From Eledone cirrhosa (lineage: Eukaryota): a DNA stretch of 64,000 nt. The notes under the pieces were generated by a model, which ran no database searches, was not told the origin of the DNA, and saw only the letters and a list, made by a program, of their open reading frames with translations. The DNA lies in assembly GCA_964016885.1 (NCBI GenBank), contig OZ024740.1, positions 173,352,001-173,416,000 on the forward strand. Reading direction: 5' to 3'. Position 1 is the first letter of the stretch. The number at the start of each line of letters is the position of its first letter. Made by a program: the position numbers and the translations under genes. Below, piece after piece: positions 1 to 46,244 of the stretch.

Positions 1-59
1 CTGTCACTACCTCCGTCTCTCCCGTGAGAGTTGAGGATCTCTCACTATTATGAGCAAAT

Positions 60-210
60 GGGGGCCCACGTGCTGGCTTCCCCGTGGCCCCAGTGGACAG
101 AATAGAGAAGGCGTTTCCCCGATATTTGGAGAGTTTACCCTCCTCGGCCCGAAGTGCAGCAGACCCTTGGTTAGTCGCAGACTGCACCAGATTGCCGCAG
201 GAGGTTAGTT
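60..210 (-). mobile_element. CRE-clade non-LTR retrotransposon 3' fragment, internally deleted
   Basis: Minus strand reads ..GSAALRAEEGKLSKYR|GNAFSILS.., the C-terminal restriction-like-endonuclease (RLE) region. It matches the 36.5-kb copy on both sides of a deletion of about 145 bp (aaggcgtttccc | cgatatttggagagttta). Confidence 0.6.
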
Positions 211-327
211 CATAATAAAACAGTGAACACTCCGAATGGAAAATATTCAGTGCGAAGTGTATCAGATAATTGAAAAAATAGTAGTTCGGCACTTAATGCC
301 TCCATTTTATATATAAATAGACATATA

Positions 328-497
328 ACGGCGGTGGATTAGCAGAATTGTTACTACGTCGGATGAAATGCAGTATTTCTTTACGGTCCTCTCTTTTCAG
401 TGCACTAATCCTGCTGGAGTTAACTTTACCTCTCATCCTTCTCGGGTCAATAAAATAAAGTACCAGTCAAGTACTGGAGCGAGTTTAGTGATGTAAT
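328..497 (+). mobile_element. tRNA-derived SINE (Meta-domain-like), degenerate
   Basis: Head ggcggtggattagcagaatt and core ttaactttacctctcatccttctcgggtcaataaaataaagtaccagt, shared with more than 20 copies in the window. Confidence 0.7.
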
Positions 498-561
498 CAT
501 ACGTTGAGTATTATTAAGTTAGACTTGGCCAGGGCCAATATTGGCCGAAGAGCTTATCAAA

Positions 562-636
<75 letters not shown>

Positions 637-639
<3 letters not shown>

Positions 640-1412
640 CGTTTCTGAATTTGTTTAGCAAGATTCTTTATCTGAAATCGTGTGTTGAAACCGATATTGT
701 TATACTTTGGGAGGGTCATGTTGCCAATAAGAAACACACGCACCAGTTGCTTTCACTTCAATTTATTATAATAAATTTATAAATTTAGGAATTTATAAAC
801 CTTCAAGATAGTAAAGAATCATCTATACTCTACCAACATGCTAAAATAGAACATAAGGGTAAATTAGAGAACATAGAAATAAAAATAGAATCTACACACA
901 GAAAAGACGCAATGTTTAGACAAATCACAGAGGCAATTAACATAAAAGAATTACAACCAAAATTAAATAGAAAATATGAGTGGAACAGCAACATCACAAC
1001 TTACAATTAAGGACAAAATGAAAACACACACACACATAGAACAAACAACCAACCGGTAACATGTAAATAAACAAATAAATAAACGAATATAAACACACAC
1101 AGACACCCGGATGTGGCGCATGCACAGACTGAGCACACAACACACACACAGAAACAAAATGGCGTAGGACAGAACAAAGGAGAGGCACAAAAACAAAGAA
1201 AAGAATCCCCAGTCACTGAAGAGGTCACAGAATGTGTGACGAAAGAACTTTGACAATATATAAACAACTATCTGGTTGTGGAACCAACCAACCAACCAGA
1301 AATTTATAAATTTATAAATTCCTAAATTTATAAATATATTATAATAAATTGAAGTGAAAGCAACTGGTGCGTGTGTTTCTTATTGGCAACATGACCCTCC
1401 CAAAGTATAACA

Positions 1413-1416
<4 letters not shown>
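637..1416 (+). mobile_element. Penelope-like element (PLE) remnant: GIY-YIG 3' end plus pseudo-LTR, with an inverted pLTR copy
   Basis: ..TEAINIKELQPKLNRK near 930-975 fits the PLE GIY-YIG C-terminus. Inverted repeat of about 105 bp (694-799 vs 1311-1416). Hammerhead-like motif at 1212-1254. Both ends run into (TA)n. Confidence 0.7.
1212..1254 (+). ncRNA. Minimal type I hammerhead ribozyme, degenerate (PLE pLTR)
   Basis: GTCA-CTGAAGA-G-GTCACA/TGTGAC-GAAA-GAAC-TT-TGAC. Stem I GTCA/TGAC, core boxes intact, one extra G before stem II, non-palindromic stem III. Confidence 0.55.
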
Positions 1417-3097
<1,681 letters not shown>

Positions 3098-3102
<5 letters not shown>

Positions 3103-3209
3103 AACGAGTAGGACCCCGACGGCTGAGCTCAAGCCGTTTCGACGGCTAATTCCGGAATTAGCCGCCGAAACGGCTTGAGCTCAGCCCTCGGAGTCCTACT
3201 CGTTCCTAT
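3098..3209. repeat. 112-bp GC-rich near-perfect palindrome with no loop
   Basis: Centre ttcc|ggaa at 3153/3154. The 56-bp arms have 3 mismatches and the left arm abuts the TA array. Confidence 0.92.
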
Positions 3210-3336
3210 TACCCACTCTACTACCCTAAGTATTGAGTACTTTGGTGCGTTATGGTCCACCTGGTTCCTTACCACATTTCCTTCGTTTTATATATTTATA
3301 TTTATATTTATTTATATATATATATATATATATAAT

Positions 3337-4015
3337 ATATATTTAGAAACACACAGATACTGGTTCAGTCTGGTTCAACCGGATTGGTCTGTCCCAGTCA
3401 TTCATTGAGCAACATCGGTAGGGTTGGCACCATTGACTCACGGTTGGATGTGGATGCATTCATGTATATGTGTGTGTCCGCATGTATCTGTGTGTTTCTA
3501 AATATATTGTTCATAACTCCCTCTGGTCGAGTAATCTTTGAAGTGTAGCGACTGCTGGAAAGCAGCCATTACTCATACTTCTCGCCCCCTTTACCACCTC
3601 TTCTACGGCTTCGATATAAATACCCCCTCCGCCTCCGTGGTATTTTCTTCGAGGTTATAAGAGGCTTAGCTCTGTTTCTCGACCGTGATATCGCGTGACT
3701 ATCTCCCCCTCCGCCTTTTGGGATTCTTTCTCACGTCGTGTAGACGCGTTCTTGAAGCTATAAAATGAGGTATCCTCTTGATAAGTCGACAGACCTCGCA
3801 AGGGCTCTATATCTTTATGATGTACTGTTTTTGTTTATGCCACGAAACTACGTAGTCGATCCTCTTGATAAGTCGGCAGACCTCGCAAGGGCTCTATATC
3901 TTTATGATGTACTGTTTTTGTTTATGCCACGAAACTACGTAGTCGAGGAATCTAGGAGCAGTTTAGGTATGATACATTTTATTACTAATTATATCTAAAT
4001 GTTCCTTCTCTCTTC

Positions 4016-4020
<5 letters not shown>
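3337..4020 (+). mobile_element. Non-autonomous hammerhead-containing retroelement (retrozyme / PLE-dependent candidate), order B-C-A
   Basis: Segments 3356-3508 (B) and 3953-4020 (A) recur joined as A-B on the minus strand at 46240-46474. Contains TATAAATA (about 3616) and tandem hammerheads. 5' end carries a short inverted copy (3337-3360 vs 3484-3507). Flanked by (TA)n. Confidence 0.65.
3773..3949 (+). ncRNA. Tandem pair (87-bp period) of type I hammerhead ribozymes with U3-A8 core variant
   Basis: TCCTC-TTGATAA-GT(C)GGCA...TGCCAC-GAAA-CTACGTAG-TC-GAGGA. Stem I TCCTC/GAGGA, stem II with one bulge, palindromic stem III, GUC cleavage triplets ending at 3857 and 3944. Confidence 0.75.
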
Positions 4021-4061
<41 letters not shown>

Positions 4062-4189
4062 GATAAATCTACCAAAAGTTTACGGTAGTGTCCAATCTAA
4101 CACATATATATCCTAGAAACGATCGTAAAATGATGAACTTTTTTTAATATAAGGAACTGTTTCTTTGTTTATTCATTATTTTATTAATT

Positions 4190-4311
<122 letters not shown>

Positions 4312-7300
4312 GTGCATAAATGTTTAATAAGCTCCCGGAGAATTGTATCAATAACATCTAAAAAGCCATCTTCGCATTCGGTGAGAAGGTGATAGATGTA
4401 CCTGGTTCGATTCTATGTCGTAGCTGTTTTACTTGCTCCGATAATGACTTTAAGAAAGAATGATTGCTACAAGACTAATGCAGCACCCAATGAAATTACT
4501 TAGCCAGGCCGGTCGTTAGGTTTTGTTGCTTTCAGGAGCTTCTGAAAATTTTGGGAGGGTACTCAAACTCACAATAATTCTAAGGCAGAGTTTCAGAATA
4601 AACATATCAGTATCATTTTTAAATCTGAAACGTTGATGAGCACCTTTCTTGGTGACGGGCTCTCACTTTGTGTTGATAACTCGTTGACTGACGCTTCTTT
4701 TCATAAAAAGGACAAGTTATTGAATGACCCCCGCTAATATGTAGGATACATACAAAATAGAAAGAGCAACGTCCCATGGATTAAATCAAAGCTAATTTCG
4801 ATATGTTGGGGGAGTTCGATTCCTGAACTAGATGGCATGTTGTGTCCTTGAGCAAAACATTTCATTTTGTGTTCCTCCAGTCGAAGGAAGAGAGCAATCT
4901 TGTACTCTCAGTCACTTAACGCCAATGAAACTTGGATAAGTACCGACTTGATGAGCCCATGGTTTTGGATTAATTACGATACCCAGTTTAGCCGCATGTG
5001 TCATCCCAGCTGATCAGTTTCTGTGTCACTTCTCGAGTTATGAGTTATGCGTGTTTGTTTACTTCTTCCACCCTTTGTTGTGAGATAAATCCCTCTCATG
5101 TTTTACATGGGTCTGAAACGCTAACACTTTAACATCTTATTGTACATCGAGTGTTCTATGTATATATAAAAGAAGATATATAAAGAATATGGTAGACTGA
5201 AAACATCATGCATCACAAGTTATTGTTCAAACGTGTATTTTATTATACTGTATCTGTTAGTACATGTTATGCTGTAGGAGAAAGAATCAAAAGAGAAATT
5301 TGAGGGGAAGGAAAAGTAGTCACGGTTGAAGGTAAAAGACAGAGTGAGAGAGAAAAGTGTTACACGGAGGGTAGATAGTAACGATGTGAGCCAAAAGGAA
5401 GAGAAGGCCATTTACTTACAGTATGTTACGTGGTTAAAGGAATAGGTAAAAATACAGACAAGAGTGTTTATTGGGGGGAATGTGAGTGGGAACGCTATTT
5501 AGACATATAATCAAACGCACACACGTGATAAACTGAGAGCTGTGTGGTGGCTTAATTGGTAAGAGTATTGGTCAATTGAGGTGATGGTAGTGGTTATAGC
5601 TGTGATAAGGAAGAGAAGGCGAAGACTGTAGTTTTTTAATTTACAAATATTTTTTTAATTAATCGTCAACTATTTAACGCATAATTGACAGAGTCGCTAA
5701 AACGTCAGAATATCAGACACAATATTTTGTTGTATTCGATCTGAGTTATGGAGACCAACTTTGCCTTTAATCTTTGGAGGTCGATACAAAAGTACCCGTC
5801 CGATACTGAGATTGATTCTTCCTCTATATCTCTTTCTCCCTCTCCTTCTCTGGAAGAAATCGGCTGTATTCAGACCTAGAGAGGTTTTATAATGTCTAAG
5901 AAGCGTTGTAAGCCCTTAACAAAGATATACCGACTTATGGAAGCATAATCAAAGATAGCTTATAAAAATGAAACATTTATTTGCTTGGTATTGCAGTGGA
6001 ACCATCTATTATAAGTGTTATAATGTAGGACAGATGAATATTTTCCAGTCTTTGGGCTTTTTAATTAAGGAATTGTATTTAAATTAGTTTATCAAAATAT
6101 GTTATGTTGTTTTTCACTGCAGCGACGAATGTGGGCCGATTCATAGTTGCTACGGTAGGAAGTACCGGATCAAAATATCGAATAATCTTCAAATAGAGGC
6201 TTGATCCAAGGAAGTCCACACAGTTCTAGTCTACTCGATTTTACTGATAAAGCTTTGGTCAACTCGAGGTTATAATACTACCGCGCAGTGGGTACTCTGG
6301 TGTGATTGCGAAGTGAAATCCTCAACAACTTGACCATGCCTGGGCCGCAGTTAGAAACGTGGGGTGAGGGTCAATATAACGAATAGTAATTAAATTAATA
6401 TGCTCATTGTAGTTATTAAAAGATTTCAAATATTTTTTGCTCTAATTTTAATTGCATAAAACAAAGAACTAAAAAGGTGTCTGAAATGTTATGGATTTTT
6501 CGAACGAAATTTTTATGAAAATTTCGAGAATTGTAAAAAAACTTTTACTGACTTTCTCTGGACAAAATCTAAATGTGTGATTTTAGCAAAATAAGTCGCA
6601 GATTATAATATCAATTTAATTACTCTTACCTCTCACTTCTGCAACGACAGAACATTGTTGGTAAAAGTAGAGAAGTATCGGCTTGGATCAGAGATGTTGT
6701 AACCAAAACAAGCTTCACTGAGTTACCTTCTCTTTATTTCACTTTATATTTAACGATGTGTACAAAAATCCTTTGATTTTAATCTAAAAATTTCGGAATG
6801 TGATAAAGGAAATTGTATCAGAACTATGCTCATTCATATCAAGTCCGGCATACGACAGGCATTTTAATTTGAAATTGTAAGAATACAAAATAGAACAGGT
6901 AAGGAAGAACAACAGATTTTGTCACACTAAAATGACTACCAATTTAAAATGGTTTATATTCGTAATTGTTGAGATTTGTTATTTTCTCCATATATATTTT
7001 AAGTTTTAGCTTCTTGATCATCTTTATGACTCAGATATTAATTCCCCTTCGTTTTATTTTTAATGCATGGGAACTGTTCAAAGAATGTTTCGAAGTATTT
7101 TCTGTATTTTCTATGGCTTTTTTTTTTTCTTTTTGTATTTTAGCTTAGTATGTTTGACTTAACGATTAACCCATTTTGGTTCGTAAAAGACATATTTTAC
7201 ATATTTTCAACCAAGAAAAAAAACCCTGTGTTTATGACGTTTATTTCTTGTCTCTTTCATATTCCCCTTTACCTCTTCAATGTACAGAATTATTCAGAAA

Positions 7301-8373
7301 GAATATAAAAATCACATTATTTTGCTTAAGCTATTAGAGGTTACTGTAAAATTATAAATAGTATTTAATATAAAGCGTTCTTTATTTTTATGTTAATGAA
7401 TGGCACGCTCTAAAACCCGAGCGTTTCATTTCATTCGAATTTTCATACGTTTCCTTTATTATTATTTGAAAGAACAATATACAACTTGAATCAAAAGTCT
7501 TGCTCAAAATGGAAATTTTGAATAGACAAAATGTGTTGTTTTTTTTTATATTTCTGGTGTACCTTTTTCCAATTCCCCAACAATAAAGCGAAAGGTCTAG
7601 AATAATTCGTATTGTGTTATATATAATTGTTTATGTACTTTTATTGATTGTAAATATCCTTTTAGCTTAACATCGAGTACAAACTGATCATTTCATCCAT
7701 CCATTTCGCTTCATTGTTATTCTTGTTTAACCCTAAATTTCAATTCAGATTATACTCATAATGGAAGAAAAAACCATTAGCGATAATTTCAATTTTGTCA
7801 AAGACAAAAGAGACAACTCTGAAATTCAAACAAACTAAAATTTCAATGAGAGCGTGCAGTAAGACGTGAATCTAATCTTTGGTAAATATGCAACAACTCT
7901 GGATATATTTTGGTCTCATATGTTGTCATTTCTTTTCGGTTTCTGAAATCAGGGCTGTTTATAGACTGAGTACTGTTGTATATTAATTTTGAATGAAATG
8001 GTGTAAATGTAATGAACAAGACGTGTTTCGTTTGATGATTGATGGCATCAACATTTTGAATTGCAATGTAAAATAACAGGTTCGGTTTATTTACTATACC
8101 TAACCCGCTTCCTATTTTCCATTGTCTATAAATATGAAACGTAATGTAGTTGTGTTGCATTATAGATTCCTCTCTTAACGGGTATAGATTGTTTGATATA
8201 AAGCTGTTGAGGACATATTTATAAAAAGCAGATATTTGAAGCTAATAGAGGAAACAGATTTTCCCCATTGTGTTAAGACTTATATAAAAAGTATTGTGAT
8301 AAAGTGTTGGATAGAAAAGGCAGAACATAAAGAAAAACAAGAAAGGACAATAGAAAGTGGAAAGAAAGAGAGA

Positions 8374-8443
8374 TATGCAGATGATATGCAGGTATGCAAA
8401 TGATATGTAGGTATGCAGATGATATGCAGGTATGCAGATGATG
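8374..8443. repeat. 19-bp tandem repeat, about 3.6 copies (tatgcagatgatatgcagg)
   Basis: Units start at 8374, 8393, 8412 and 8431. Confidence 0.8.
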
Positions 8444-8509
8444 CCAAGCTAGACAGAGAAAGAATTAAAACCGGAATTTATGAAGAGAAATAAAAGGATA
8501 GACCTAAAA

Positions 8510-8945
8510 GCTTAGCGCATTTTGATTGTCGTACTACGCTCGAGCCCAGCAGCCCTACCCTCAACCGCTTTGCTGAAGTCGCCCTGAAATGCTTCTATTT
8601 TTCTGTGAATATCTATCAGCAGGTCACTTAGTGGCCATGAGAACTAAGATGGGTCCCAACTATATCAACGTTTATCGGACATATTGAGGCACAAATGTTT
8701 GCCTAATTTATTGGACCCATCCCAGAGCTATACGAGCGTTACACCGACAACTACATCAGTTTGACCCGTTGTCAGCAACTTATTTGTCGCTTTCGTCAAT
8801 TCCTGCCACCCTACACTAGATTTCAAATTTCCCATTGTCGTCACCTCTGTTTACTTCCTTGATATTTCGGTCTCTATTAACCACCCAAACCCCTCCAACA
8901 TAATCGTTTAGAAGCCCACTGACTACTACAACCTCAGTGTTACCT
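8510..8945 (+). mobile_element. Penelope-like reverse transcriptase fragment, decayed
   Basis: Frameshifted motifs PTLNRFAEVAL, VAMRTKMGPNY (cf. GVAMGTKMGPNYA), RYTDN (cf. RYIDD), YFLDISVSI and KPTD occur in the expected order. Confidence 0.7.
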
Positions 8946-9027
8946 TCTGACCATATCTATCGGCAGATCTCCATTAGTGATATCAATTTGCTTAAAAAAA
9001 AGAAAATTGCCAAACCTATTAAAAAAA

Positions 9028-9147
9028 CGCGTAGGAATGGATGTATGGGGAAAAGGTTTGATTTCCAACCACAAGCCTTCATGTTCGATCCCATTGCGCG
9101 GCATCTGAACAAGTTGTCTTTTACTACTGCTTCAAGTTGACTAATAC

Positions 9148-9192
<45 letters not shown>

Positions 9193-9410
9193 GGGGGGAG
9201 GGGGGATTTTGTTCGTGTTTATGTTTACACCAATCTAAAAACCAGTGTTTATGTTGCGCTCCTTTATGTCCCATGAATTCGACAAATAGCGATTGATAAA
9301 ATAAGTACCAGACTGATATAGATGCTGGAGTTAAATGATCGATTAAAACCTTGAAGCTGTTAATCGAGCATGACGACAGTCCAGTGACGGAAATCATTAA
9401 AAAATAAAAG
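9028..9410 (+). mobile_element. tRNA-derived CORE-type SINE interrupted by (TA)n
   Basis: Head gcgtaggaatggatgtatgg..gttcgatcccattgcgcggcatctgaacaagttgtc, and 3' part gataaaataagtacc..gcatgacgacagtcc. Confidence 0.55.
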
Positions 9411-9649
9411 AATGTGGATGTGAAATTAAAATTTCTGTGTGAAACCTTATAACTCAATCGGGACAATACATCATCATTATCATCACCGTTTTACGTCCAT
9501 TTTCCACACTAACATGGGTTATGTTTTCATATTGGTAGGTCATGAGGTGCAGTCTTTCAGTAGTTGACTTTGTGTTTTCCTTTTCCAATATGATTTCCCC
9601 ATATATGTATGTTTGAAAATATTTTGACATGCATCATTACTGGCCTAGA

Positions 9650-10935
9650 TCTCTGGAGAGGCACCTAAGCAATGGCAATCGGGAGTAATAATCCCAGTTT
9701 TCAAACAGGGAGACAATAGAGATTATTTCAATTACAGAGGAATCTCCTTGTTAAGCCTCCCCGGTAAAGTTTATGCTAAGTGTCTGGCAAAGAGATGCAG
9801 AGAGATTATCGAGTCCAAGCTAGCTGATGAACAGTACGGTTTTCGCCCTGGACGCAGCATAGTCGACGAAATATTCACACCACGGCAGGTCTCCGAGAAA
9901 TCGTGGGAGTATTGCCAAGAGGTATAGTCTTGTTTTGTAGATCTCGAAAAGGCATATAACCGCATTACTCGGGACATGCTGTGGAAAGATGTGCCGGGGG
10001 TGCTAAATCGAAACCATTCAATGTGGGTGTCGGGCTCCTCCAAGGGTGCGTACTGTCACCTCTCCTGTTCATTATTTTCATAAATAGGACTGACATGCGC
10101 AGCCGGCTTGAAAGTGGTATCACGACTGGCGGGTATAAAATCAGTCGGCCAGAATTTGCAGAAAACATTGTGTTACTTAACTCGACAGAAAGGGATCTCC
10201 GATTTGCACTTGATAGGTTTGATGCCGAGTGCTGCATGGATGGAATGAAAATGATTGCTGCGAAAACTGAGACACTCGTCCTCTCAAGGAAACCTGCACA
10301 GTGCATTCTGCGCGTGAATAGAGTTCCACTGAAGCAGGTGGAAAAGTTAATGTATCTTGGGGCCGTGTTCACGAGTGATGGAAGGCAGAAGGCTAAATTA
10401 AGTGCGAAAATTGCAGGAGCTGGTGGAGTAATGCGCCAGCTTCAGCATTCAGTAATCAGAAGGGAAGTAGGTGTGAAAGCCAAACTCGCTATCTTGAATT
10501 CGGTATTCGTGCCAACCCTTACCTATGGTCAAGAGTCTTGGGTAATGACCGAAAGAATACGATTGCGAATAGAAGCGACCGAAATGAAGTACCGTTACTC
10601 AATAGAGTGCGTAGCTCGGAGATCAGAAAGTCACTCTAGGTAGAGCCATTACTTCTCCAAATTGAGAGATCACAACTCTGATACTCTGGGCATGTGGTTA
10701 GTATGTCTCAGGAAAGAATGGCTGGACAGATTTTATGGGCCAAACCAACCGGCAGGAGACCTATGGGTAGACCTCGAGCAAAATGGCTGGATAACATCCA
10801 TGAGCTTGGCTGGTCTCGCTTAGGCATCCAACCGGATCATTTGGAGGCGGCTGCTTCTGACAGGACCCGCTGGAATGAGTGTTTGAGGACTCTGCCCCCA
10901 CAACCCTCTCAGGAATAAGTGGGTGAAGAAAAAGA
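9650..10935 (+). mobile_element. 5'-truncated, decayed RTE-clade LINE (Rex3/Expander-like) RT and 3' end
   Basis: NYRGISLLSLPGKVYAK, EQYGFRPGR, FVDLEKAY, VGLLQGCVLSPLLF, FAEN (broken FADD), YLG, GRRPMGRPRAKW. Contains an internal deletion, stops and frameshifts. The 3' end ctgcccccacaaccc..gaagaaaaagat is followed by a short CAT tail. Confidence 0.85.
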
Positions 10936-12425
10936 TCATCATTACTTCTTTCTTGTAAAGAACTAATTATTGCGTGTATACTATACGGATAAAGCTTTAA
11001 ATACTCACAGCGAGACTATATGTATGTTTATTGTACATAAACAAATTGTATGCGGGTCTATCTGCGCCTTTATTCTGAACCACACTTTATTGTTATCACT
11101 ATTACTACTAGCCAGTCAAGCTTGCACTATATGTAAATAAGCCTTCAGCAAAATAATGTTTTACAAGTATCTCGGAGAAGGTGCCTGCTGATTATGAATA
11201 ATTCTGAAATACATGTATAGAGCGCTCTTACGCCGATACCGATTTAGTTGTGGCATGACCTGAGCAATACTATATTATATACAAACATAGATCCATATAC
11301 GCCATTAATGTGTATGTATGTGTAAGTCTCATCGCGTGAATGTGTGTGTAAATCTAAGACACCCTTCAAGAAGTCGTACTTGACGTTAAACCAGAATTAG
11401 CCAGTCCTATTATACTTTATTCTTTTTGCAATGAATATGTTGTTAACTATAGAATATAGAAGAAAGAATATACGAATAAAAAGTCGTTTTCATTTTATCC
11501 TCTGACTCGTTTCTATTTCAGATACGAGATTAAATAATTGGGAAGTAGGCTAATCTGAAGATCAACAAAAGTGATCTAGTGAACTGCTAACTATAAATGA
11601 TGTTTATTTCACATATAGTCTCTCACACTCTCTCTCTCTCCATCGCCATATATATATATATATATATATATAATCTAACACTGAGGCCATTTTCTCCTGT
11701 AACCTACGTAGAAACCTCATTACGTCTGACGATAAATATAGATATATATATATAACTAGATAGAAAGTAGGATGTCAATTGTTTGCTCAATTCCAGGCTA
11801 TTTAATTCCATTGACTGCAAATAAAATACATTTTTTTAAAGCAGGATTGTTTTATACAACGATCCTCATTGTTACCAAATACAGCTTCAGCACACGCAAG
11901 ATGGCTGTCAAAAATATACACAAAAAAAAAACACTATCGTTCTCTGCTATTTCTAACTTACGCACCCACACAAAGAGTTCATTCTTCTTTGTGAATGCGC
12001 TTATTCATCAAGCCTCTCATTCTGTGTGTAATTCAACATGACCTTCTTTTATATTTTTGTTACATCAGAAGTGCAGAGCAAATTTTGAAAAAATAATTTC
12101 CCTAAGCGGCGATTATACTGACATCGTTCAGTTTCTTTCTTTCTTTCTTTCTTTCTTTCTTTCCGTCTTTTAATAAGGTAGAAATTGATAATTGAGGTTA
12201 AATAAACTTTGAATAACACTAGGTTCTTTGTACCAAGGATTGGGGAAAGTGTTAAATATATATCAGGCACGTGCCATGAGTAAACACTCAGGCTGGGCTG
12301 TATTCTATAATAAAGTAAATTGTCAACAAAAGGCCTCCTCATTATAAGACAATGTGTAAAAATAATTTTACAACAAAAAATATTTACACACACACATACA
12401 CCGCATGTGTATGTGTGTGTGTGTG

Positions 12426-15488: not shown

Positions 15489-15580
15489 CAGTAAAAATAT
15501 GACTAACAAAGAAGTCCAGAAATCCAAATTCGTAAGTAGTCTGGTTACTTCATTGTGATGAATTCAGTTCCTGATAAAGA

Positions 15581-16877
15581 CATCGTTTACTACACACATT
15601 TCCCCATAGGACATGGTTTACTATATACATTCTTCCATAGGACATGGTTTACTATACACATTTCCCCATAGGACATGGTTTACTACACACATTCTTCCAT
15701 AGGACATTGTTTACTATATACATTCTTCCATAGGACATGGTTTACTATACACATTTCCCCATAGCACATGGTTTACTACACACATTCTTCCATAGGACAT
15801 GGTTTACTATATACATTCTTCCATAGGACATGGTTTACTATATACATTCTTCCATAGGACATGGTTTACTACACACATTCTTCCATAGGACATGGTTTAC
15901 TATATACATTCTTCCATAGGACATGGTTTACTATATACATTCTTCGATAGGACATGGTTTACTACACACATTCTTCCATAGGACATGGTTTACTATATAC
16001 ATTCTTCCATAGGACATGGTTTACTATACACATTTCCCCATAGGACATGGTTTACTACACACATTCTTCCATAGGACATGGTTTACTATATACATTCTTC
16101 CATAGGACATGGTTTACTATACACATTTCCCCATAGGACATGGTTTACTACACACATTTCCCCATAGGACATGGTTTACTATATACATTCTTCCATAGGA
16201 CATGGTTTACTATATACATTCTTCCATAGGACATGGTTTACTATATACATTCTTCCATAGGACATGGTTTACTATATACATTCTTCCATAGGACATGGTT
16301 TACTACACACATTCTTCCATAGGACATGGTTTACTATATACATTCTTCCATAGGACATGGTTTACTATATACATTCTTCGATAGGACATGGTTTACTACA
16401 CACATTCTTCCATAGGACATGGTTTACTACACACATTCTTCCATAGGACATGGTTTACTATATACATTCTTCCATAGGACATGGTTTACTATATACATTC
16501 TTCCATAGGACATGGTTTACTATATACATTCTTCCATAGGACATGGTTTACTATATACATTCTTCCATAGGACATGGTTTACTATATACATTCTTCCATA
16601 GGACATAGTTTACTACACACATTCTTCCATAGGACATAGTTTACTACACACATTCTTCCATAGGACATGGTTTACTATATACATTCTTCCATAGGACATG
16701 GTTTACTACACACATTCTTCCATAGGACATGGTTTACTATACACATTCTTCCATAGGACATGGTTTACTACACACATTCTTCCATAGGACATGGTTTACT
16801 ATATACATTCTTCCATAGGACATGGTTTACTATATACATTCTTCCATAGGACATTGTTTACTATATACATTCTTCCA
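15581..16877. repeat. Intronic 31-bp minisatellite, about 42 copies (catggtttactatatacattcttccatagga)
   Basis: Contiguous units with tatata/tacaca/tataca and tcttcc/ttcccc variants and no spacers. Confidence 0.96.
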
Positions 16878-17070
16878 GGTAACCGAAGACAGTCGATTGG
16901 AAGGATCTTTAGAACATTTGAGGACAAATCTTCTGAACTTAAATCCCGCCGAGGTTCAACTTTGCCTTCCAACTTTCTGTAATCCATTCTCTCTCTCTCT
17001 CTCATATATTCTGTTTTGTTTTTATTTATTCATTATTTTTATCATTTGTTTTTTTATTTGTCTTTGCAAG

Positions 17071-17300
17071 GCACCGAAACATGTGTTGACAGCTGAGCTT
17101 TCAGAACTTGTCGGATATTTAATTGCACCATATGAAGATGAAGTAGCAAAAGTTCGAGTTATTTTCCGATGGATAACCGAACAGGACTTGGAAAGGTACG
17201 AGGTTCAAACCAATGCACCTTCTAACAGTCCTGCCCGTTACTTAAACGAATTGAAAGAGAGCAAAGGTCGCTACGATTTATTCTTCAACAATATGTGCCA
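17071..17300 (+). CDS. Hillarin/KY-like protein, coding exon 2
   Basis: tttgcaag|GCA acceptor. APKHVLTAELSELVGYL..KVRVIFRWIT..GRYDLFFNNMC. Donor gtgagt (phase 2). Confidence 0.88.
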
Positions 17301-18834
17301 GTGAGTAATTTTTGTTAAATTCTTACTTTATTTAGTTTAGGTTTCTTGTGTTGATGTTTAACACCGCCTTAGCAATTCTGATCAATTCTAACCTATGGTC
17401 AAAGATATTCCAGCCATAAAAATTTCATCTATTTTTTTAGACTCTCCAGTTTTTTGGCGGTGTTTTTGCTTTGTTTTTTTTTTAACAGTAAGGTCTGATA
17501 TAAGAGTGATTTTGCTACTATTTATAGCAGGTTCAGTGACTACGTATGCGATCCCTCGTAGCCGTCATGTTATTGTTTAGTCTTAGCTGATGAAGCAAAC
17601 TTCTGGTCAAAATAATTACTGTCAAGAACACCACATCCTGGTTATTTCAGGCTGTAAACTACATTATTCAATGTATCATAGGTGTGTTTTAATGGAGATT
17701 ATTTTTTTTCTATTTCTAAAAGGTCGAGTGATCATGTAAAGGGTTTCTCGTTGATTCATTTGTCTACTGTTAAAGGAAATACAAACATCTACAGATGCAA
17801 AAACAAGAATATGTTTGATAATATGTATGCAGGAAAACTTCTTCATTTGGCTATGTGCCTATAATAGAAACCAATAACAATTAGATCTTAATATGGAATA
17901 GCATAACGGATAGGCTTAATTTAGTGAGAATGACATTGTGACACACTTGTCAACAGTGACATGCAATAGGTTTTTTATGTGGCACACTATGAACTTTTAA
18001 AACATTCTCCCCGCTATATCATGTAAGTGATACTCCAATAACGGGATTATTAAAGAAATTAAAATTTCGACAAACCGAGCTAAAACCATCGCTTAATTAG
18101 TGAGCAAGACTTCTTTCCCATTTTTTTTATTTTAAAATAATCGAATATGCAAGGTATATTTGTCTTGAAAGAGAAATTACAATGCTTTGTTACTACGTAA
18201 TTGTTTAGATAAGAGTTGGTGAAGTATTTTCCTTCATTTCTTATTCCCATTCTCTCTATATCTATCTATCTATCTCCTTCCTTACTCACCCTTATTCTCT
18301 CCCCTCCTTCCCTATCTCTCCCTTATTCTCTCACCTCCTCCTCTATCTCTCCCTCTCCCTGTAACTGTTTGTCTCTTCTCATCTCACTTTATTACATGCT
18401 TTCAGATTCTCTCTCACTCAGACACACATTCCCACACTCACACACGTGACGGTGACATGAGATTTATGACTAATGTTTTGCTTATTTCCTCCTTTATAAT
18501 GCAAAAAGCTAAATATGCAATTTTAGTTTCTAGTCTGAGTATTAGAAAAGAAAACGAAATAGTAATTTATTTCGTGTAGTTTGACAATATACGATACTTC
18601 TGACTATAAATGAATTTAAAAGACAAAGAGAATCCGTGTGCATGTGGAACGCACTTTATAGTGAGAAAAGATTATTGGCATAGGAGATACCTCTCAAAAG
18701 TAAGAGCTTGTTGTATGCAAAATACTTGTCAAGCAGAAGAGGAACTCAAATAACTCCGTATTATGAAGATTAAAGATAAGTGTGAAATCTGCGTTGGTGA
18801 AATCTACAGTTGGTGGATTAAGACTGTTATTGAC

Positions 18835-19222
18835 GGCCACATTGGCAGTATCTGTAGAGTGTCTGACGCCATGTTTTGCAGTAAAGAGTTACGGCCCTTT
18901 ATGGCCTGAGTTCAAATCCCGCCGAGGTTAACTTTGCCTTTCATCCTTACGAGGTCGATAAAATAAAGTACCAGTAATATCCTGGGGTAATTGCTGGCCT
19001 TGTGCTAAATGTAGAAACAATAATATTTTAGAGCGTTTAGGCGGTGGATTGGCAGTATCGGTAGAGCGTCAGACACCATGCTGTGTAGCATAGAGTTATG
19101 GCCCTTTGCGTTCCGAGTTCAAATCCCGCCGAGGTTAACTTTGCCTTTCATCCTTACGAGGTCGATAAAATAAAGCACCAGCACTGAGATAATTGCTGGC
19201 CTTGTGCCAAAAGTAGGAAGAA
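18835..19222 (+). mobile_element. Two head-to-tail Meta-type SINE copies
   Basis: A-box tggcagtatcggtagagcg, B-box gagttcaaatccc, core gccgaggttaactttgcctttcatccttacgaggtcgataaaataaag. Confidence 0.85.
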
Positions 19223-19469
19223 TTATATTTTAGACCGTTCCGTGCTCCGCTGCACACACGGCCATCCCTGGGCAATTTCAGCAACTTATCAGTTTTTCTA
19301 TGAGAAGAAACTGCTAGCCCCACAACTTTTCTCCGTTTCTGGAGAAAGTGACTGTGAGTAGTCTCCCACAACCCTTCTCGTGCCATATCACAGCCTATTT
19401 AGAGAGAGAGAAAGGTACTTTATTTATAGCCCCCAATATACATGTTTCTATCATTGACACAAAGACAGT

Positions 19470-19720
19470 ATTTTGGGAAAAGGGGGAAAGTCGGTTACAT
19501 TGACCCCAGTACTTAACTGGTACTTTATTTTATCAACTCGGAATGTAGAAAGCTGTAACCAAATCCCGCAAAGAATTATGCCTGACGCTCTACCGATACT
19601 GCCAATCCGTTCCCTTATAGCCGCCAAAGTAATGAAAGGCAAAGTTGACTTTTGCAGGAATTGAACTAGGAGTCAGGGAATACTGCAAGGAATTCTCTCT
19701 GACACTTTAACGATTCTGCC
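19470..19720 (-). mobile_element. Rearranged Meta-type SINE pieces
   Basis: Reverse complements of the SINE tail, head and core in mixed order. Confidence 0.6.
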
Positions 19721-21893
19721 GTAATGGTCATTATGAGAGGACTAAAACTATATAGATAAAATAATTACTTAAATAGATACTCATATTCATGTTCTCTAGA
19801 TAGTATTATCAAATGCAAAAGATGCAAACATTGAGAATTTGTGGAAAATATATGGATAAGAAGATTACAAACTCTACCTCAGTTTCAGGCATGAACATAA
19901 ATAATTGGTGAGTCTATGCAAAGCAGACACTCGGAAGATTAACAGTTTTGGTTCGATATTGCTAAATATTGCCCCTCAAATGATTATCAGTTAAATATTC
20001 CATTCCTTATATCAAAGTTTGTAGAATTAGAGATACATAGAACTTATAATTGGTATGTATTTAATTTGCATCGCAACTCATTTTCCAATTCTGTGTATAT
20101 TTCACTATATTGCCATAATAAGAGGATTAGCAAAATCGTTCAAGCGTCGGAAAAAATACTTTGTGACATTTGTTCCTGCTCTTTACAACCTGAGTTCAAA
20201 TCCCGCCAATCTCATCTTTGCCTTTCATCCTTCTAAGGTTGATAAAATGTTAGGATCGATATAATCGATTTTCCCTTCTCCACAAATTGCTGACCTTGTG
20301 CCAAAATTAGAAAGCATTATATTGCCATAATAGATTATATACCAAGTGTTAAATATGCACAACTTTCTTTAGAAGAAAATTGTGGAGAGAAAACGTAATT
20401 GGTGACGCTATTTTAAGAAAGATTCCCAAAAGATTAATATATTATGTCATTTTTATTTTCACTTAAGGAGTTATTTTTAATTCTATTAGCTCTGACTATC
20501 AAATCTACATTAGATCTCCACCCAACTATCTGATGATAACGAAAACTCCCACATACAACTAACTATATATGAAGGGCAGTGGAAATGCCGAAGACACTTG
20601 AATGTCGTATTAGATTCTTTACAGTATCTAGATCGGTAACCAATGATAGAGTTCAAATAGCTTGAGGTCAACTGTTGTAAAGATAAGTTCCTGGTATGCA
20701 GTATGCGACCTGGTTTCATTACGTGGTGAAAGTCATTTCACAGCATTTATATTTCTAATGCACGCCAGAAAGATTTTCCATTTCGGTAAAACTTCACTAT
20801 ATTAATTAACATGATAACATTTTGGACAATGTCTTTCGTCAGAAAATCTTTCAATTAAGGGTCCTACTCAATATGTTAGATATTTCTTCTCACTGCACTT
20901 GTTATTTTTCTGAAACGATTCTCGGGAATGAGACACCTAAAACAACGAGTCTCTTCAAATATTTGTGATTATTTATTTATATATTACCATTATAACCTTA
21001 TTTGTACTCTAAGAGTTTTATCGCAGGAAATAACAGGATTCGCCAATGCTTATCATGTAATTGACAGAATTATTGTATTAATACAATTTACTTGCTGGCA
21101 ACATTTATCTGGTGCTTCTACTCAGGACTGCTGAAGATGACTCACGTGTAGAACAGGATGATGGGTGTTGGTGTTTTTTTTTTGTTTTTTTAAGAAAATG
21201 ACTTTAAAAATTCCGTCAGAGATTACAAATATATCACTCGATTCCTCATACATAACAAATAATCTTCAGTTAGGTTGGTTAGAAGATAGGGCCAAAGATA
21301 TATAGTTGAAAAAAGATGCTTCTTGATAATAATTTTTTCTACTTTTGGCACAAGGCCAGCAATTTCAAATGAAGGGGAATGTCGATTAAATCGGCTCCAG
21401 TGCGTTATTGGTAATTTATTTTATCGGCCCCACAAGGATGAAAGGCAACGCTAACCTCGTTGGGATTGTAAATATGTATTACATAATATATGAAACCAAA
21501 GTTTTTGTTTCTTCTTTTTCTATTTATAGACTCTTTAATTAACCTCACAGGGGGAGTAACTAGTGACCCTGTACTTTCAGAATCTAGGATGATATACTGA
21601 AAGGTTTTATTGTTATCTACAATCCATATAAGTTGAATTGTGTTTTTAAATTGAGACGTTTCTTGATTATACAGACATCACAATTTTTAAAGCAATGAAC
21701 TCTCTCAATGCTGGTGCCCTACTCACACCTAAGTGTACGGAGTAAGTGTTTGTCAAGAATCTTGGTCTGGGATATAGAACAGCTCCAGTGATAAATCAGT
21801 AAGCGTTAATTCTTCGTTAGCTGCAATTCTCATGAAAATCCTGATCGTAGATAAATGACCACTTGTCACTGCTGTAGGTGGCCGAATGCTATT

Positions 21894-22547
21894 AATTGTT
21901 TCTACTATTGGCACAAGGCCAGCAATTACCCAGTACATTACTGGTACTTTATTTTATCGACCCTGTAAGGATGAAAGGCAAAGTTAACCAGAAAAAAATG
22001 GTTAATCTAAATTGACATTGTACAGTAACATATTACATGACTTATCATAACAGCTGATTCCCCAATCAAATCAGGGAAACAAACTCCTGCTAGATGTCTT
22101 ACACCACAATCACTGTTTGTATTTCTGATAGTCATTAGTCCAGGTGTCTTTTTGAAGTATATCAATAATTGCTTCTATTTTTGGCACAAGGCCAGCAATT
22201 ACCCAGTACATTACTGGTACTTTATTTTATCGACCCCGTAAGGATGAAAGGCAAAGTTAACCTCGGCGGGATTTGAACTCAGAATGGCAAGGGCCGTAAC
22301 TCTATGCGTCAAAGCATGGCGTCCAACCCTCTACCGATACTGCCAATTCACCACGTAATAAATAATTGTTTCTACTTTAGGCACAAGGCCAGCAATTACC
22401 CAGTGTATTACTGGTACTTTATTTTCTCGACCCCGTAAGGATGAAAGGCAAAGTAAACCTCGGCGGGATTTGAACTCAGACCGTAAAGGGACGTAACTAT
22501 GCTGGAAAGCATGGTGTCCGACTCTCTACCGATACTGCCAATCCACT
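21894..22547 (-). mobile_element. Cluster of three Meta-type SINE copies
   Basis: ggcacaaggccagcaattacccagt..gatgaaaggcaaagttaacctcggcgggatttgaactc recurs near 21900, 22170 and 22370. Confidence 0.85.
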
Positions 22548-22975
22548 AATAAATAATGTACGTAAAGTTTCATTGATCAAGTTGACGTAACCGATTCACA
22601 AACTTAGTTCACCTGGAGATTGGAGAATACTCTCGATTGTGTGGAAAATAATACTAGATTTAGGGTGAGACAAATGTTTTTTAAGTTCACATCTGTTATA
22701 ATTGTTTCGGTGTATTTCTGGGAATAACTCGTTAGTCTACATTGCCTCAGTTTCCCTAACTGACAAGATTAGGCACATAAGAGTTGCAGGTTTAATGTAG
22801 ATGAGAGATTAATTGATAATAGAATTCAATTTTTTTGTATGTGATATCTTATTTCTTACACTTTGTTTGAAAGCATTAGTATTAACTAATACAAATATTT
22901 GCATATTATTTTATGTGTATCTTTCATTTTGTTGTATGAGGTAAATTCTAATTCAATTTTGACGTATAATTTCAG

Positions 22976-23955
22976 GCTTGCCGATATATCGTCAGTATCA
23001 ATACACGGACATTCGAAAGGAGTAGGATTTAATGTTGGTGACCCTATAACACTGAACACAAGAAACATATGGAATGCAGTTCTCATAAAAGATACTTGGT
23101 ACTTGATAGATGTTCACTGGGCATCACGTAAGATATCTGGAGTGGAATCTGAAGAATGGCAGCTGGTTGAATGTCAACAAACAAATGGCAGTGATGTAGA
23201 CGATTCTATCGTTCAGAACATTTATGAGTTTGATGAGTTCTATTTCTTGACTGACCCAGAGAAATTTATATACAGTCACTTTCCCGATGAAGAGATTTGG
23301 CAACTGTTAGCACGACCTTTATCAAAAAATGAATTTCAAAAAGCTCTTTATTTAAAGCCACATTTCTTCGAGTTTGGACTGACTGTGAAAAGCCACGTTT
23401 GGTGCAGTCTTCAGTCGGTGGATGGTTTTGTCAACATTGAACTTGGTGTGACACGTACTGATTTGTCATTCTCTTTTGAACTCTACAGATCCAATAAAAT
23501 CGGCAATCCAGACGACAAAAAAGAACTTGCAAAGTACATGTTACTGGAAAGAGACACCGAACATAACAAATTATGTATCGAAGTAAGATTTCCTGTTATA
23601 GGAAAGTTCAAAGCTGAAATCTTTGGTCGTGATTCTAAGAGTAAATTGGAATGGTTATGTTCATATGTGCTCTACTGCAGCTCTCCTCTGTCGAATTGTG
23701 CCCCACTTCCACCGAACCCTAAAGGTGAATGGGGCCCTGGGGTTGATTTATTCAATTGTGGCATTACGCCCATAACTCATTTGAGAGGTAAAGTTGAGGT
23801 ATACGATGGAGAAGTCGAGTTGAAGTTTGCTTTGGAGAAAAACGTGGATCTATTACATAGACTAGTGTTTGAAGATGGACAACAGATCAGTGATTATATC
23901 ATCTGTGAAATAATTAATGGAGTTGCCACAGTTATCGTAAGACTTCCCAAGGAAG
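22976..23955 (+). CDS. Hillarin/KY-like protein, coding exon 3 (TGc core plus Ig-like repeats)
   Basis: ttcag|G acceptor completes the CAG codon. IHGHSKG, NIWNAVLIKDTWYLIDVHW, FDEFYFLTDPEKFIYSHFPD..WQLL, RFPVIGKFKAEIFG. Donor G|gtaaat (phase 1). Confidence 0.93.
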
Positions 23956-25376
23956 GTAAATAATTTTATCTCATATTTGTTTATGTCTTGCTAGTTATAT
24001 TGTTTGTGGCTTCACAATGACTTAAGAATTAGTTAATTATTGAATTAATAAACTTATGAAAAGGACAGTCTAATCTTTGTTTGGAGGTGAGGAGCAGCTA
24101 TGAACACATGCGTGGAGTCCACTAACATATATAGGAGAAATTGCCATTATAAAACTATTTGGCAATACACTTCATTTCCCGTACCGTAAAATTTAGAGTT
24201 AAGTAACGTCTCACAAACGCGCATCAAGCTTAAGAGATACTTATCTAGTTTTTTGTTTTTATTTGATATGCACCATATAGCCAGAGCCGGCGTTTGGTTA
24301 TTTAGCGCCCTCTTCTAGCTTTACAATGTGCACCCCAATCCCGCAAATAAAATAATTTCAATTTACAGTTTGGCAAGCTGACAAACCTAACTATTACTCT
24401 GATCCCACTAAGAAAATTACTAAGCTTGCATTTTCTACTATATATCCATACTCACCCATGTAAAAATATATTACAGGTCATAACACAATACGACCTACTC
24501 CACTGCTTTATCTATTTCACAATGCTTCTACGAGTAATTTATTATATATTTAATTTAGATAAACAAATATGTATAAAACTGGGAAACTTTAAGGTGTTGC
24601 CTAGCGAGCCAAATAGTTGCGCCGACCGTCTAAAGCATAATTACATTTGATGACTGTTCTTTCCATATCCTAATCCATTTTCTATATTGGCTTTCTGAAT
24701 TGTTGAACATTGCCAGGCTACTGTTTCAGTGTTATTAATTTTGCTAGTTTAACACACTGCTGAAATCATTTATCCAGAAGGAAGGATTGCTATTTTAAAT
24801 TCCTTAGTCCTACCTAGGATCAAGTTGTTACGTTATTATTGTTTGGCCCCTTATCAAGCAAACTTATTATCAAAGTCCAGTTAAACACCATCATCTAGTT
24901 CACTTTAGCTGCCTTTGGTGGAGTTCATTTTTTTTCTTTTCTTTTCCTTTTTTCTTTTTCCTTTTATTTTTTTTTACAAACACTCCGACCAGGGATCAAG
25001 CTTGAAAGTACTTTCGACATTTCTTCCTCTCCCTCCGATTAGTCTCTGATGCCTTGAAAAGGGTCATAAACACTGCCGCCTTCCCCTTCCTAATGAAGCA
25101 GCCATAAAAAACCGTAGTCATCTTTTTAGAGTTACGTTGGATTATCTAATGTGTCCTTTTCTTATTTGAGACAATATAGGGGCACGTTTGGTTGCTAGTT
25201 CAATCAGGTCGAGCGACACCCACAAATGATCCTTTGTTGGACTGTTGCTGACGTTATTGTTGTTGTTGCTACAGAAGATGTGTTGTTGTTGTTACCGATG
25301 TATTGTTGTTGCTTCTGTACTATGCTGTTGTTGTGTTGTTATTTCTGATGTTATTCATTATCCTATGTATTCACAG

Positions 25377-25793
25377 GTCAATATGCACTGCAAATGTATG
25401 CCAAGAACGATCCAAGTGACAATGAGTACTCCAATATATGTAACTATTTGCTAAGATGCAATGAAGATTTGGGTGTTGTATCCCCATACCCATCAGTGAC
25501 AAACGATAAAGTCGGATCACTGGGAAGGTTTCACACACTCGGCCTTCGCACTGTTGAAAATGCACCTGGATATCAAAGAATGTCAACTACAGGACAGTGT
25601 TATTTTCAAATAAAAATCCCAACCGATATTGATTACTTCACAAAGTTTGTTCACCAGTCTGAGACCTCTTTAACTGATGTTTCTGATTATACATATTGTT
25701 ACCGAGAGGAAGATATCGTTAAATTCTCCATAAGATGTCCATCGCCTGGTTATTACCGATTTGATCTGTTCGCCAAACCCAGAACAGAGGAGG
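25377..25793 (+). CDS. Hillarin/KY-like protein, coding exon 4
   Basis: tcacag|GT joins to give LPKEGQYALQMYAK. Also RCPSPGYYRFDLFAK. Donor G|gtatgc (phase 1). Confidence 0.88.
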
Positions 25794-25894
25794 GTATGCA
25801 GTAATCCTTGTTAATTATCATCATTTTCTTTAACTTTTGTTTGCTTTTGTTTTTGTATTATTATAACTATTTATTTTGATTATTACCATTGTTA

Positions 25895-26355
25895 TAGTGT
25901 CGGACAAAATGCTTTGCAGCATAGTCACAGCCCTTTACGTTCTGAGTTCTAATCTCGCCGATGTTAGCTTTGCCTTTTATTCTTACTGGGTCGATAAAAT
26001 AAAGCTCCAGTAATGCACTTGGGTGGATTTAATCAACGTTTCCCCTCCCCTTCAAATCGCTGGCCTTGTGTCAGAAGTAGAAACAACTATTATTTTCGTT
26101 ATATGCTTCCTTTTATTGATTTCACCTCTCTCTTTATTCGGTACAAACACCATTGTTTATCATCCTTGTACTGTCCCCAACGTCTTCGGCTTGTGTGGTT
26201 AATAAGAAATCATTATTGGGTTTTTTTTTTGTATTTTTATTCATGATTCTTTCTGATTTGAGTTCAATACCTGCCAAGATCAGATTTGCCTTGAGATCGA
26301 TATAGTCGACTTCGCTTCCTCCCAAAATGAATAGCCTTGTTCTTAAATTAGAAAC
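25895..26355 (+). mobile_element. Two degenerate Meta-type SINE copies
   Basis: ctgagttctaatctcgccgatgttagctttgcc..gtcgataaaataaag, plus a second B-box/core near 26260. Confidence 0.6.
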
Positions 26356-27559
26356 CTTTATTATTATTTTGTTATTAGTAGTAATAGTAGAAAAAGATTT
26401 TATTGATATTTCTTCAAACTGCATTGTTGTAGCCTCTTAATACACCACGCACGAGATGTGTGTGTGTTCTGCAATGCTCCAAGTGAACAACAAAACTCTT
26501 CTAGTGTATAAATATATAAAATATATTTATAACATCATGCCATAAATCACATTGTTTTAGGTTTAGTGTGATGGACGCAGCATTACTACAATACGTTCTG
26601 TGTGAACCAAATCCACGGTTCACCGTTGACACAATTTGAAACATGAGAAGTGTTTCGGTTCTCATTAGAACCAATTTAATTTTTAAAAAATTTTAATTTT
26701 AAAAAAATCGTGTCACAACTTTCCATACAAGGTAGACAGGTTAAAGCATAGAAAAAAAGCACCTTGCAGCATTTGTTCTAGCTCTTTTCCTTCTGAGTTC
26801 TTGGGTGGTAGACTTAATCCATCAATCGGTTTAACACTACCACTTGGTCCTTGGGTGCAATAAACAGTTCTCTGTTGTAAGCATTTGGGGCCAGATCTCA
26901 TCTTCCCTTTCTATCTACCTCTCACCGACACCATAATAAACTAAGGGGTCCCTGATCGTTTGAAGGTCGGGTAAATTAGTATTTCCACAACCAGTATCAG
27001 GCCCAAGCTCTTTTGCTCAACAGCCTGAAAATCGCAAACTGTCAAAGCATGTCGCTCTCCGACACAAAATTCTGTAATTCAAAGCAGTGCAAACAACGTT
27101 CTTGGTCCCTGAACCAACTCCAAGCTGCTGCGATCAGGACAGAGATGACCATCCGCAAGAACGAGTCCAGCTAGTTGGTCTGGTTCTTTCAGCACATCTC
27201 CCTCGCTATTAACAATTCTGTCTGTTGGTGTTTTACAAAGGACGTGAGATGGTAGTGTTATGAATTAATGGGGTTTTCTTTATATTGTTTTGTTTTGATA
27301 TTAGTCAACAATATACTCTTTCTATGCATATTTCAATACTTGGCTACCATTTTCTGTTAAATCTCATGATATCGTTAGTTTAACAATCCACCATCTGCCT
27401 TCAATGATATATACAATACCTGTAAGTTCAATGATCACCTCTGCTAAAAATTAAACTGGTCCTCTATTTATACAGCATAACTTATGTTTTTTCTTAGACT
27501 GCTTGGAAAGATGTTCTGCACAACTAATCTTGTTTTTGTTTCTGTTTTGCGCTCTACAG

Positions 27560-27900
27560 GTGGCTACCCTAAAGTGTTCTGTTCCGTTCTAGAAACATTT
27601 TGGCCAATGGTTGATTGCTTACCATTCCCACAGAAGTATTCAGCTTGTAAGGATATATACAATATCATTTCACCAGCTGTAAATCAAGTAGCTGAAGGTC
27701 AGCAAATAAAAATGGCCGTCATTGTTCCAGATGCTGAAGCTGTAGCTACGATAGAAGATCAAAATTGGAATTACCTAGAAAAGGGTGAAAACAACAACTG
27801 GTCTGGAAAGATTACTCCCCAAAATACCGATAGTGTTATTTCCATAGCTGCTCGGCACTCCAATTCTGAACGCTCCTTCGAGGCATTATTCTCCTTCAAG
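27560..27900 (+). CDS. Hillarin/KY-like protein, coding exon 5
   Basis: ctacag|GT acceptor (phase 1). CLPFPQKY..VIVPDAEAVA..WNYLEK..WSGKI..ALFSFK. Donor gtaacc (phase 0). Confidence 0.85.

Positions 27901-46208: not shown

Positions 46209-46244
<36 letters not shown>

Follow-up and report, generated by a model that had tools for sequence, protein, structure and literature searches.

Eledone cirrhosa carries, near the start of the stretch of genomic DNA analysed here (64,000 nt, hereafter the window), two adjoining 87-bp units that each resemble a hammerhead ribozyme, which raises the question of whether the doubling is a working device or an accident within something larger. A first-pass annotation had taken the doubling for the feature of interest and missed the mobile element that surrounds it. 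We think it probable that the motif is a predicted type I hammerhead with a U3-A8 core, borne once per unit by a non-coding repeat family of high copy number, whose ~592-nt units stand head to tail and which likely represents a non-autonomous derivative of a Penelope-like retroelement (PLE), and that the doubling is local and later. In content the window as a whole is animal-like: it holds microsatellites, fragments of LINEs and a KY-like gene split into exons.

The two units form a tandem of period 87 with 2.0 copies (TRF) and differ from each other solely at A3789/G3876 (self-BLAST). Both hold the U3-A8 core TTGATAA, GAAA, U16.1, C17 and the self-complementary 10-mer ACTACGTAGT, while the stem I 3' strand GAGGA follows unit 2 only, all of which the first-pass annotation had read correctly, as it had the mismatch in stem II of unit 1 (A-C; unit 2 has 6 bp plus a bulged C). 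Unit 2 forms stems I/II/III of 5/6/3 bp, with stem III reaching 10 bp as a dimer; unit 1 does not form the full set, given its stem II mismatch and a stem I of 2 bp. G10.1-C11.1 and the palindromic positions 15.2-16.2 are present in the motif, G10.1 stands directly after A9 with no extra nucleotide between them, and the bulge comes after 2 bp. The insert in loop II (46 nt), in which a GCAA-capped hairpin had been proposed, is folded by ViennaRNA into one long hairpin of 8+6 bp instead; this stretch is also altered by the allele that the family has at 3804/3891, described below. As had been proposed on sequence grounds, the motif is hammerhead-like, of type I, with a covariation at U3-A8 and a palindromic stem III of the dimer type. 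The novelty attached to that covariation does not hold: natural U3-A8 hammerheads have been reported as active in vitro (PMC3088659), and the same core occurs in ~1,300 Schistosoma PLE-type motifs, in S. mansoni (PMC4209133, Cervera & de la Pena 2014). The only unusual trait of the motif is its 46-nt structured loop II, for which a narrow literature search found no description; published supplementary alignments, among them those of PMC4209133, may hold such variants. Feature coordinates are collected in the table.

Table. Coordinates of the repeat, the predicted hammerhead units and their flanks (position 1 is the first letter of the window).
Feature	Position	Strand	Evidence or remark
(TA)n microsatellite, left flank, likely insertion target	3303-3342	.	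TRF
Inverted copy of the family 3' end (reverse complement of 3483-3507)	3336-3360	-	self-BLAST; 5-nt microhomology joint GATAC at 3356-3360
3'-terminal segment of the unit	3356-3507	+	copies in X1, X4 and X20 and window copy 2 end there
Non-coding part upstream of the hammerhead	3508-3772	+	no frame >80 aa in 3356-4018; X4 contigs
Unit 1	3773-3859	+	self-BLAST, descriptor; G at 3789 in the family
Unit 1 stem I 5' strand	3773-3777	+	
Unit 1 U3-A8 core, TTGATAA	3778-3784	+	
Unit 1 stem II	3785-3791/3838-3843	+	private A3789 mismatch
Unit 1 loop II	3792-3837	+	46 nt
Unit 1 GAAA	3844-3847	+	
Unit 1 palindrome	3847-3856	+	10 nt
Unit 1 C17	3857	+	stem I 3' strand of 2 nt only
Unit 2, complete predicted type I hammerhead	3860-3949	+	ViennaRNA fold, descriptor; 87-bp unit 3860-3946
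Unit 2 core, TTGATAA	3865-3871	+	
Unit 2 stem II	3872-3878/3925-3930	+	
Unit 2 GAAA	3931-3934	+	
Unit 2 palindrome	3934-3943	+	10 nt
Unit 2 C17	3944	+	
Unit 2 stem I 3' strand, GAGGA	3945-3949	+	
Remaining unit sequence, 3' of the predicted cut	3950-4019	+	other copies: 16-nt linker, then 3356 again
(AT)n microsatellite, right flank	4019-4058	.	TRF
Copy 2, 5'-truncated, between TA runs	46240-46474	-	self-BLAST; 3953 equivalent, linker, 3507 equivalent; without hammerhead

The sequence around the motif (3356-4018) is a high-copy, non-coding family. We aligned 3345-4018 to 4 (X1, X4, X5 and X20) of 22 listed sequencing runs, which may not be of the window's species or individual, and found matching pieces in all of them (1,275 contigs in X1, 39 contigs in X4, 5 contigs in X5 and 3,357 reads in X20), where summed depth is not copy number and no single piece covers the whole stretch. 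Fifteen other organism labels appear in the run listing with small shares, X5 being one of these, and its long family-like pieces, at a depth of ~2, look like trace DNA. We found that other copies join head to tail, from 4018 to 3356 via a 16-nt linker (803 reads with 67 starts in X20, and a single contig in each of X1 and X5), and that the same linker lies in copy 2 of the window, which carries the majority alleles of the sequencing runs and has the flanks of the window copy in permuted order (self-comparison). The repeat unit comes to 576+16 = 592 nt, with one hammerhead and a GC content of 0.44. Its 3' end at 3507 runs into (TA)n in 7 contigs of X1, 3 contigs of X4 and 292 reads of X20, and the predicted hammerhead lies ~240 nt upstream of this TA-anchored end. 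Past 3507 the summed depth falls from 391k to 115k in X1, from 513 to 155 in X4 and from 865 to 88 in X20, and since ~30% of it persists in X1 and X4 and 10% in X20, some copies continue into a next unit. No aligned piece in the four runs spans two consecutive hammerheads 592 nt apart, and we infer natural two-ribozyme arrays of the unit. We considered whether the cut sets the 5' ends of copies, since copy 2 starts 8 nt past it, but neither X1 nor X4 has a depth step at the predicted cut.

The same copies bear the marks of PLE insertion. Partial tandems, an inverted 5'-truncated copy and (TA)n targets belong to PLE anatomy as described in PMC8557442, and set against that description the traits of a PLE-mobilised insertion are all present here: 5' truncation, a partial tandem, an inverted 3' piece and a microsatellite target. 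Opposite-strand joints occur in other copies as well (83 and 132 reads in X20, one start each). This anatomy would also suit a different reading, namely that the stretch is the pseudo-LTR or 3' end of an autonomous PLE, that the copy in the window inserted short or has suffered a deletion, and that the 592-nt unit does not propagate itself. PLEs insert as partial tandems accompanied by inverted pieces, and minimal hammerheads occur in their pseudo-LTRs (PMC4209133, PMC8557442); the ribozyme is of the PLE type and not of the canonical retrozyme type; and at 3590, 3673 and 3966 some contigs leave the unit for unknown sequence. However, X4 contigs span 3479-3646 and 3648-3816, and the dominant X4 contigs (depth 118 and 163) cross 3508-3816 from the 3' end into the hammerhead with no ORF between; depth in X1 is likewise continuous. 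The absence of any frame >80 aa from 3356-4018 means that the RT plus GIY-YIG ORF of an autonomous PLE is not found there, and the two short frames scanned gave no Pfam match. We therefore regard the pseudo-LTR reading as unlikely. A TATA-like word (TATAAATA, 3615-3622) lies within the non-coding part, and by analogy we assume for it a putative promoter role. A sigma-70 promoter scan was set aside as irrelevant to a eukaryote, and a 77-aa ORF across the tandem was rejected as coding, having no Pfam match.

By its anatomy, then, the element is likely a PLE-derived, retrozyme-like one, and it can be placed between two described groups. PLE hammerheads have a palindromic helix III, a need for dimers and low in vitro activity, and typically an extra nucleotide between A9 and G10.1 (PMC4209133). 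The motif shares with the metazoan PLE hammerheads of that report the type I topology, the 5-bp helix I, G10.1-C11.1, the palindromic helix III and U3-A8, and with D. virilis Penelope a bulge within helix II (PMC4209133); unlike the metazoan forms described there, it has a 46-nt structured loop II, where PLE-type minimal hammerheads have a short one, no extra nucleotide at 9/10.1, a 10-nt palindrome and no adjacent PLE ORF (PMC4209133). The non-LTR retrozymes of animals consist of non-coding units in tandem, bear type I hammerheads and are expressed as circles (Cervera & de la Pena 2020, PMC7229834; PMC7761336), and a preprint derives them from PLE termini, with units of 51-972 bp (Li, Clavereau & Pollet 2026, bioRxiv 10.64898/2026.07.22.740005); its sequence-homology test of that origin covered Xenopus only, and cleavage was seen in 1/9 of its tested predicted dimers (bioRxiv 10.64898/2026.07.22.740005). 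Here too we find a non-coding head-to-tail unit, one type I hammerhead, GC below 50% and dispersed monomers with truncated copies (PMC7229834, bioRxiv 10.64898/2026.07.22.740005), and 592 nt falls within the range of the preprint (bioRxiv 10.64898/2026.07.22.740005). On the other hand, 592 nt exceeds the classical 150-450 bp and the ribozyme is PLE-type, not canonical (compare PMC7229834), while the (TA)n targeting and inverted ends are PLE-like; the likeness to retrozymes rests on DNA anatomy, with full-unit arrays deduced. Repeat-type dimeric hammerheads (newt satellite 2, axolotl retrozymes, Aedes) resemble the motif in their palindromic stem/loop III and 10-bp dimer stem (PMC7229834, PMC3088659 Fig. 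S8 legend), but there the partner is the next repeat unit, whereas here a private 87-bp duplication sets a damaged partner adjacent.

That the duplication appears private to the window copy, and that the family has one hammerhead per ~592-nt unit, speaks against the reading of the doubling as a feature in its own right. We compared the window with the family alleles and found A at 3804 (X1, 5501.5/5501.5; X20, 209/211), where unit 1 has G; A at 3891 (X1, 190,340/190,865; X20, 129/133), where unit 2 has G; T at 3912 (X1, 103,317/103,350; X20, 152/168), where the window units have C; and G at 3789 (X20, 365/366), where the window has A. Of 151 variants 40 were listed; the unit 1 position that corresponds to 3912 is not one of these, but the units are identical there, and none of the 40 lies within the core or within stems I and III. 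Because both units share private changes, the duplication postdates the private changes of this lineage, and A3789 is later still. In X4 the depth over 3828-3896, which includes the junction, is zero, against 85-557 in the six surrounding bins. The junction bin is covered in X1 and X20; ambiguous mapping to two places can explain this coverage, though rare duplicated copies may exist. A further 136 reads of X20 come from a diverged relative and pass from one unit straight into GAGGA before they diverge; they are perhaps a single locus, and they fit a single-unit norm with stem I kept. The breakpoints of the duplication lie at the two stem I strands, with 1 nt of microhomology, and this position suggests a structure-guided slip. 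Taken together, the sequences make it most likely that the 87-bp doubling is a local, later accident in the window copy and not a designed double ribozyme.

We then considered what the tandem could do as RNA, using secondary-structure energies, which leave out tertiary contacts and Mg2+. The MFE of 3760-3960 is -52.5 kcal/mol, with a 10-bp palindrome duplex and a 5+4-bp stem I, and in it a small hairpin replaces stem II of unit 1 and the 3944 site is served by the unit 1 core, not the unit 2 core. Forcing the outer site (3944) costs +4.4 kcal/mol (P ~7e-5); the inner site (3857) keeps stem II intact with a stem I of 2 bp and reaches P ~0.006 (-51.2 vs. -52.5, or 1.3 kcal/mol from the MFE); and both sites form together at P ~1e-6, because stem II of unit 1 is broken and the inner stem I has 2 bp. 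Unit 2 alone adopts the monomer hammerhead fold, with a 3-bp stem III, at P ~0.01, 1.4 kcal/mol above its MFE. A3789 costs a closed stem II 6.6 kcal/mol (-10.3 vs. -16.9), and by arithmetic, with no new folding, the best fold prior to that change would have been the one with the outer site. As modelled, neither site of the tandem is complete, one being damaged and the other incomplete. The intramolecular double fold of the first-pass annotation thus stands in part: the MFE does pair both palindromes over 10 bp and closes stem I between the 5' strand of unit 1 and the 3' strand of unit 2, but a working pair of sites is not what it gives. The same holds for the fuller claim of a functional, retained double hammerhead cutting in cis at 3857 and 3944, in whose favour are that pairing with its 5+4-bp stem I, the coincidence of the breakpoints with the two stem I strands and the closeness of the inner site to the MFE. 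However, the one change that followed the duplication disrupts a stem II on which the outer site depends, no X4 contig covers the junction, both units bear private alleles, and the low fold probabilities and 2-bp inner stem I point the same way; we consider the claim highly improbable.

Whether the motif is a hammerhead at all was approached with a descriptor, written post hoc, that accepts either core and asks for stem II of at least 4 bp, a palindromic stem III and stem I of at least 4 bp. It matched unit 2 only in the 64-kb window and gave 1 match in 200 dinucleotide shuffles on both strands (0 with a palindrome of at least 8 nt). Rfam returned no hammerhead match in 1-12000, 3740-3990 or 1150-1320, and this blank says little, since a classic PLE-type hammerhead at 1216 was likewise missed. 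That the stretch is no ribozyme, but a satellite or MITE-like repeat matching by chance or a fully dead relic, could draw on the Rfam blank, the 46-nt loop II and the post hoc descriptor, yet it has against it the single match among the shuffled windows, the equal silence of Rfam at 1216, a unit 2 hammerhead fold at most 1.4 kcal/mol from its MFE and the PLE-like placement upstream of the TA-anchored 3' end, and we give it scarcely any credence. The predicted hammerhead is probably genuine and of an already known, PLE-linked kind, and the repeat family that bears it is new at the species level. A weak U3-A8 hammerhead-like match also occurs at 38306-38352 (+); its palindrome has 6 nt and its stem I 3 bp, and it is probably due to chance. 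Beyond the window, two scans of viral contigs for the hammerhead pattern gave 0 matches, as did a metagenome scan whose permitted gap of 25-55 was too short for the 57-nt spacing of the window itself; a second metagenome scan gave 18 loci, none of which aligned beyond an 18-23-nt seed or had a core upstream. Most of the 18 are a palindromic repeat in GC-rich contigs, and in L002-L008, L010, L011, L013, L014 and L016 it is a REP-like palindromic repeat of ~130 nt, sometimes in tandem, that shares an 18-nt word by chance and has no hammerhead core that we could see.

Several neighbouring features deserve mention. A second PLE-type minimal hammerhead lies at 1206-1256 (+), 2.5 kb from the tandem, with a C3-G8 core, an extra G, a 6-bp stem II and a 4-bp stem I; it stands ~165 nt upstream of a TA-anchored end, in a host element at ~640-1416 whose TA and inverted anatomy is like that of the repeat and which has a 106-nt inverted repeat (694-799/1311-1416). 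A 68-aa frame in it (801-1004) has a weak likeness to a GIY-YIG tail (atlas 0.90, with 147 shared features and the family on 15% of members) and gave no Pfam or homologue match. This element is likely a truncated PLE of another family. A near-perfect palindrome of ~110 nt (3098-3209; 95% in self-BLAST), possibly a fold-back product, adjoins a 1.7-kb TA-rich array. Around copy 2, a perfect 95-nt inverted repeat (46122-46216/46748-46842) flanks the TA run that contains it and truncates an upstream RT element; the inner ends of this inverted repeat resemble the 3' end of the repeat family, and its TTAA-CCCT word is one we take to be piggyBac-like. The RT element has an 854-aa ORF (43097-46120, +) that matches Pfam RVT_1 and continues, broken, into a cysteine-rich tail; by its motifs it is presumably a restriction-like-endonuclease LINE. 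As mobiliser of the repeat this ORF was rejected, its RVT_1 match being its one credential and no evidence linking the two. Exons of a KY/hillarin-like gene (16819-27954, +) were recognised, one of them with atlas look-alikes of PF23265. A 1.3-kb minisatellite (15579-16877) with a period of ~31 bp runs beside an exon of this gene, and the hammerhead repeat may lie upstream of the gene or in an intron of it.

On the reading that we prefer, of a single predicted hammerhead per unit of a PLE-derived repeat, the following course of events can be proposed. In multimeric transcripts, two hammerheads 592 nt apart would pair over the 10 bp of their palindromic stem III and cleave 3' of C17. Multimeric or circular RNA of more than unit length would be copied into (TA)n targets by the reverse transcriptase/GIY-YIG protein of a PLE, supplied in trans, which would leave 5'-truncated, tandem and inverted insertions. 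No autonomous PLE partner came to light in the DNA examined, and the nearby 68-aa frame, with its weak likeness to a GIY-YIG tail, is no more than a lead. The window copy would be one of these insertions with a second, internal priming event; it spans an uncut hammerhead, which implies a template longer than one unit. Slippage or a template switch at the base of stem I then probably duplicated the ribozyme domain, which would have created one favourable cis site, 3944, cut by the unit 1 core, a site that A3789, arising later, is predicted to have put out of action. Retrozyme RNAs occur as linear and circular monomers with much internal pairing, and the fold of 3356-3859 (z = -2.9) is compatible with this but no test of it.

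A bolder idea, in which we place very little confidence, is that the doubling marks the birth of a ribozyme-only retrozyme, in which the structure-guided slip would have doubled precisely the hammerhead domain and made of a dimer-dependent ribozyme a cis-acting pair, releasing by two cuts an 87-nt RNA (3858-3944) able to circularise, and the 46-nt loop II would mark a PLE-type class missed by short-loop descriptors. If this were true, the 87-nt circle would be among the smallest natural ribozyme circles and a minimal ribozyme circle would have arisen in one step.

The locus adds one more PLE-linked hammerhead repeat family, and in that its value is modest. A private, ribozyme-only duplication would satisfy the rule of a tandem repeat with two hammerheads, and pipelines that apply the rule may count such accidents as families. 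The window copy and its relatives also put a natural test pair on offer, a single versus a doubled ribozyme, the change in stem II being present or absent. Finally, an invertebrate-like, non-coding unit that is arranged head to tail and inserted with PLE-like anatomy agrees with the proposed descent of animal retrozymes from PLEs.
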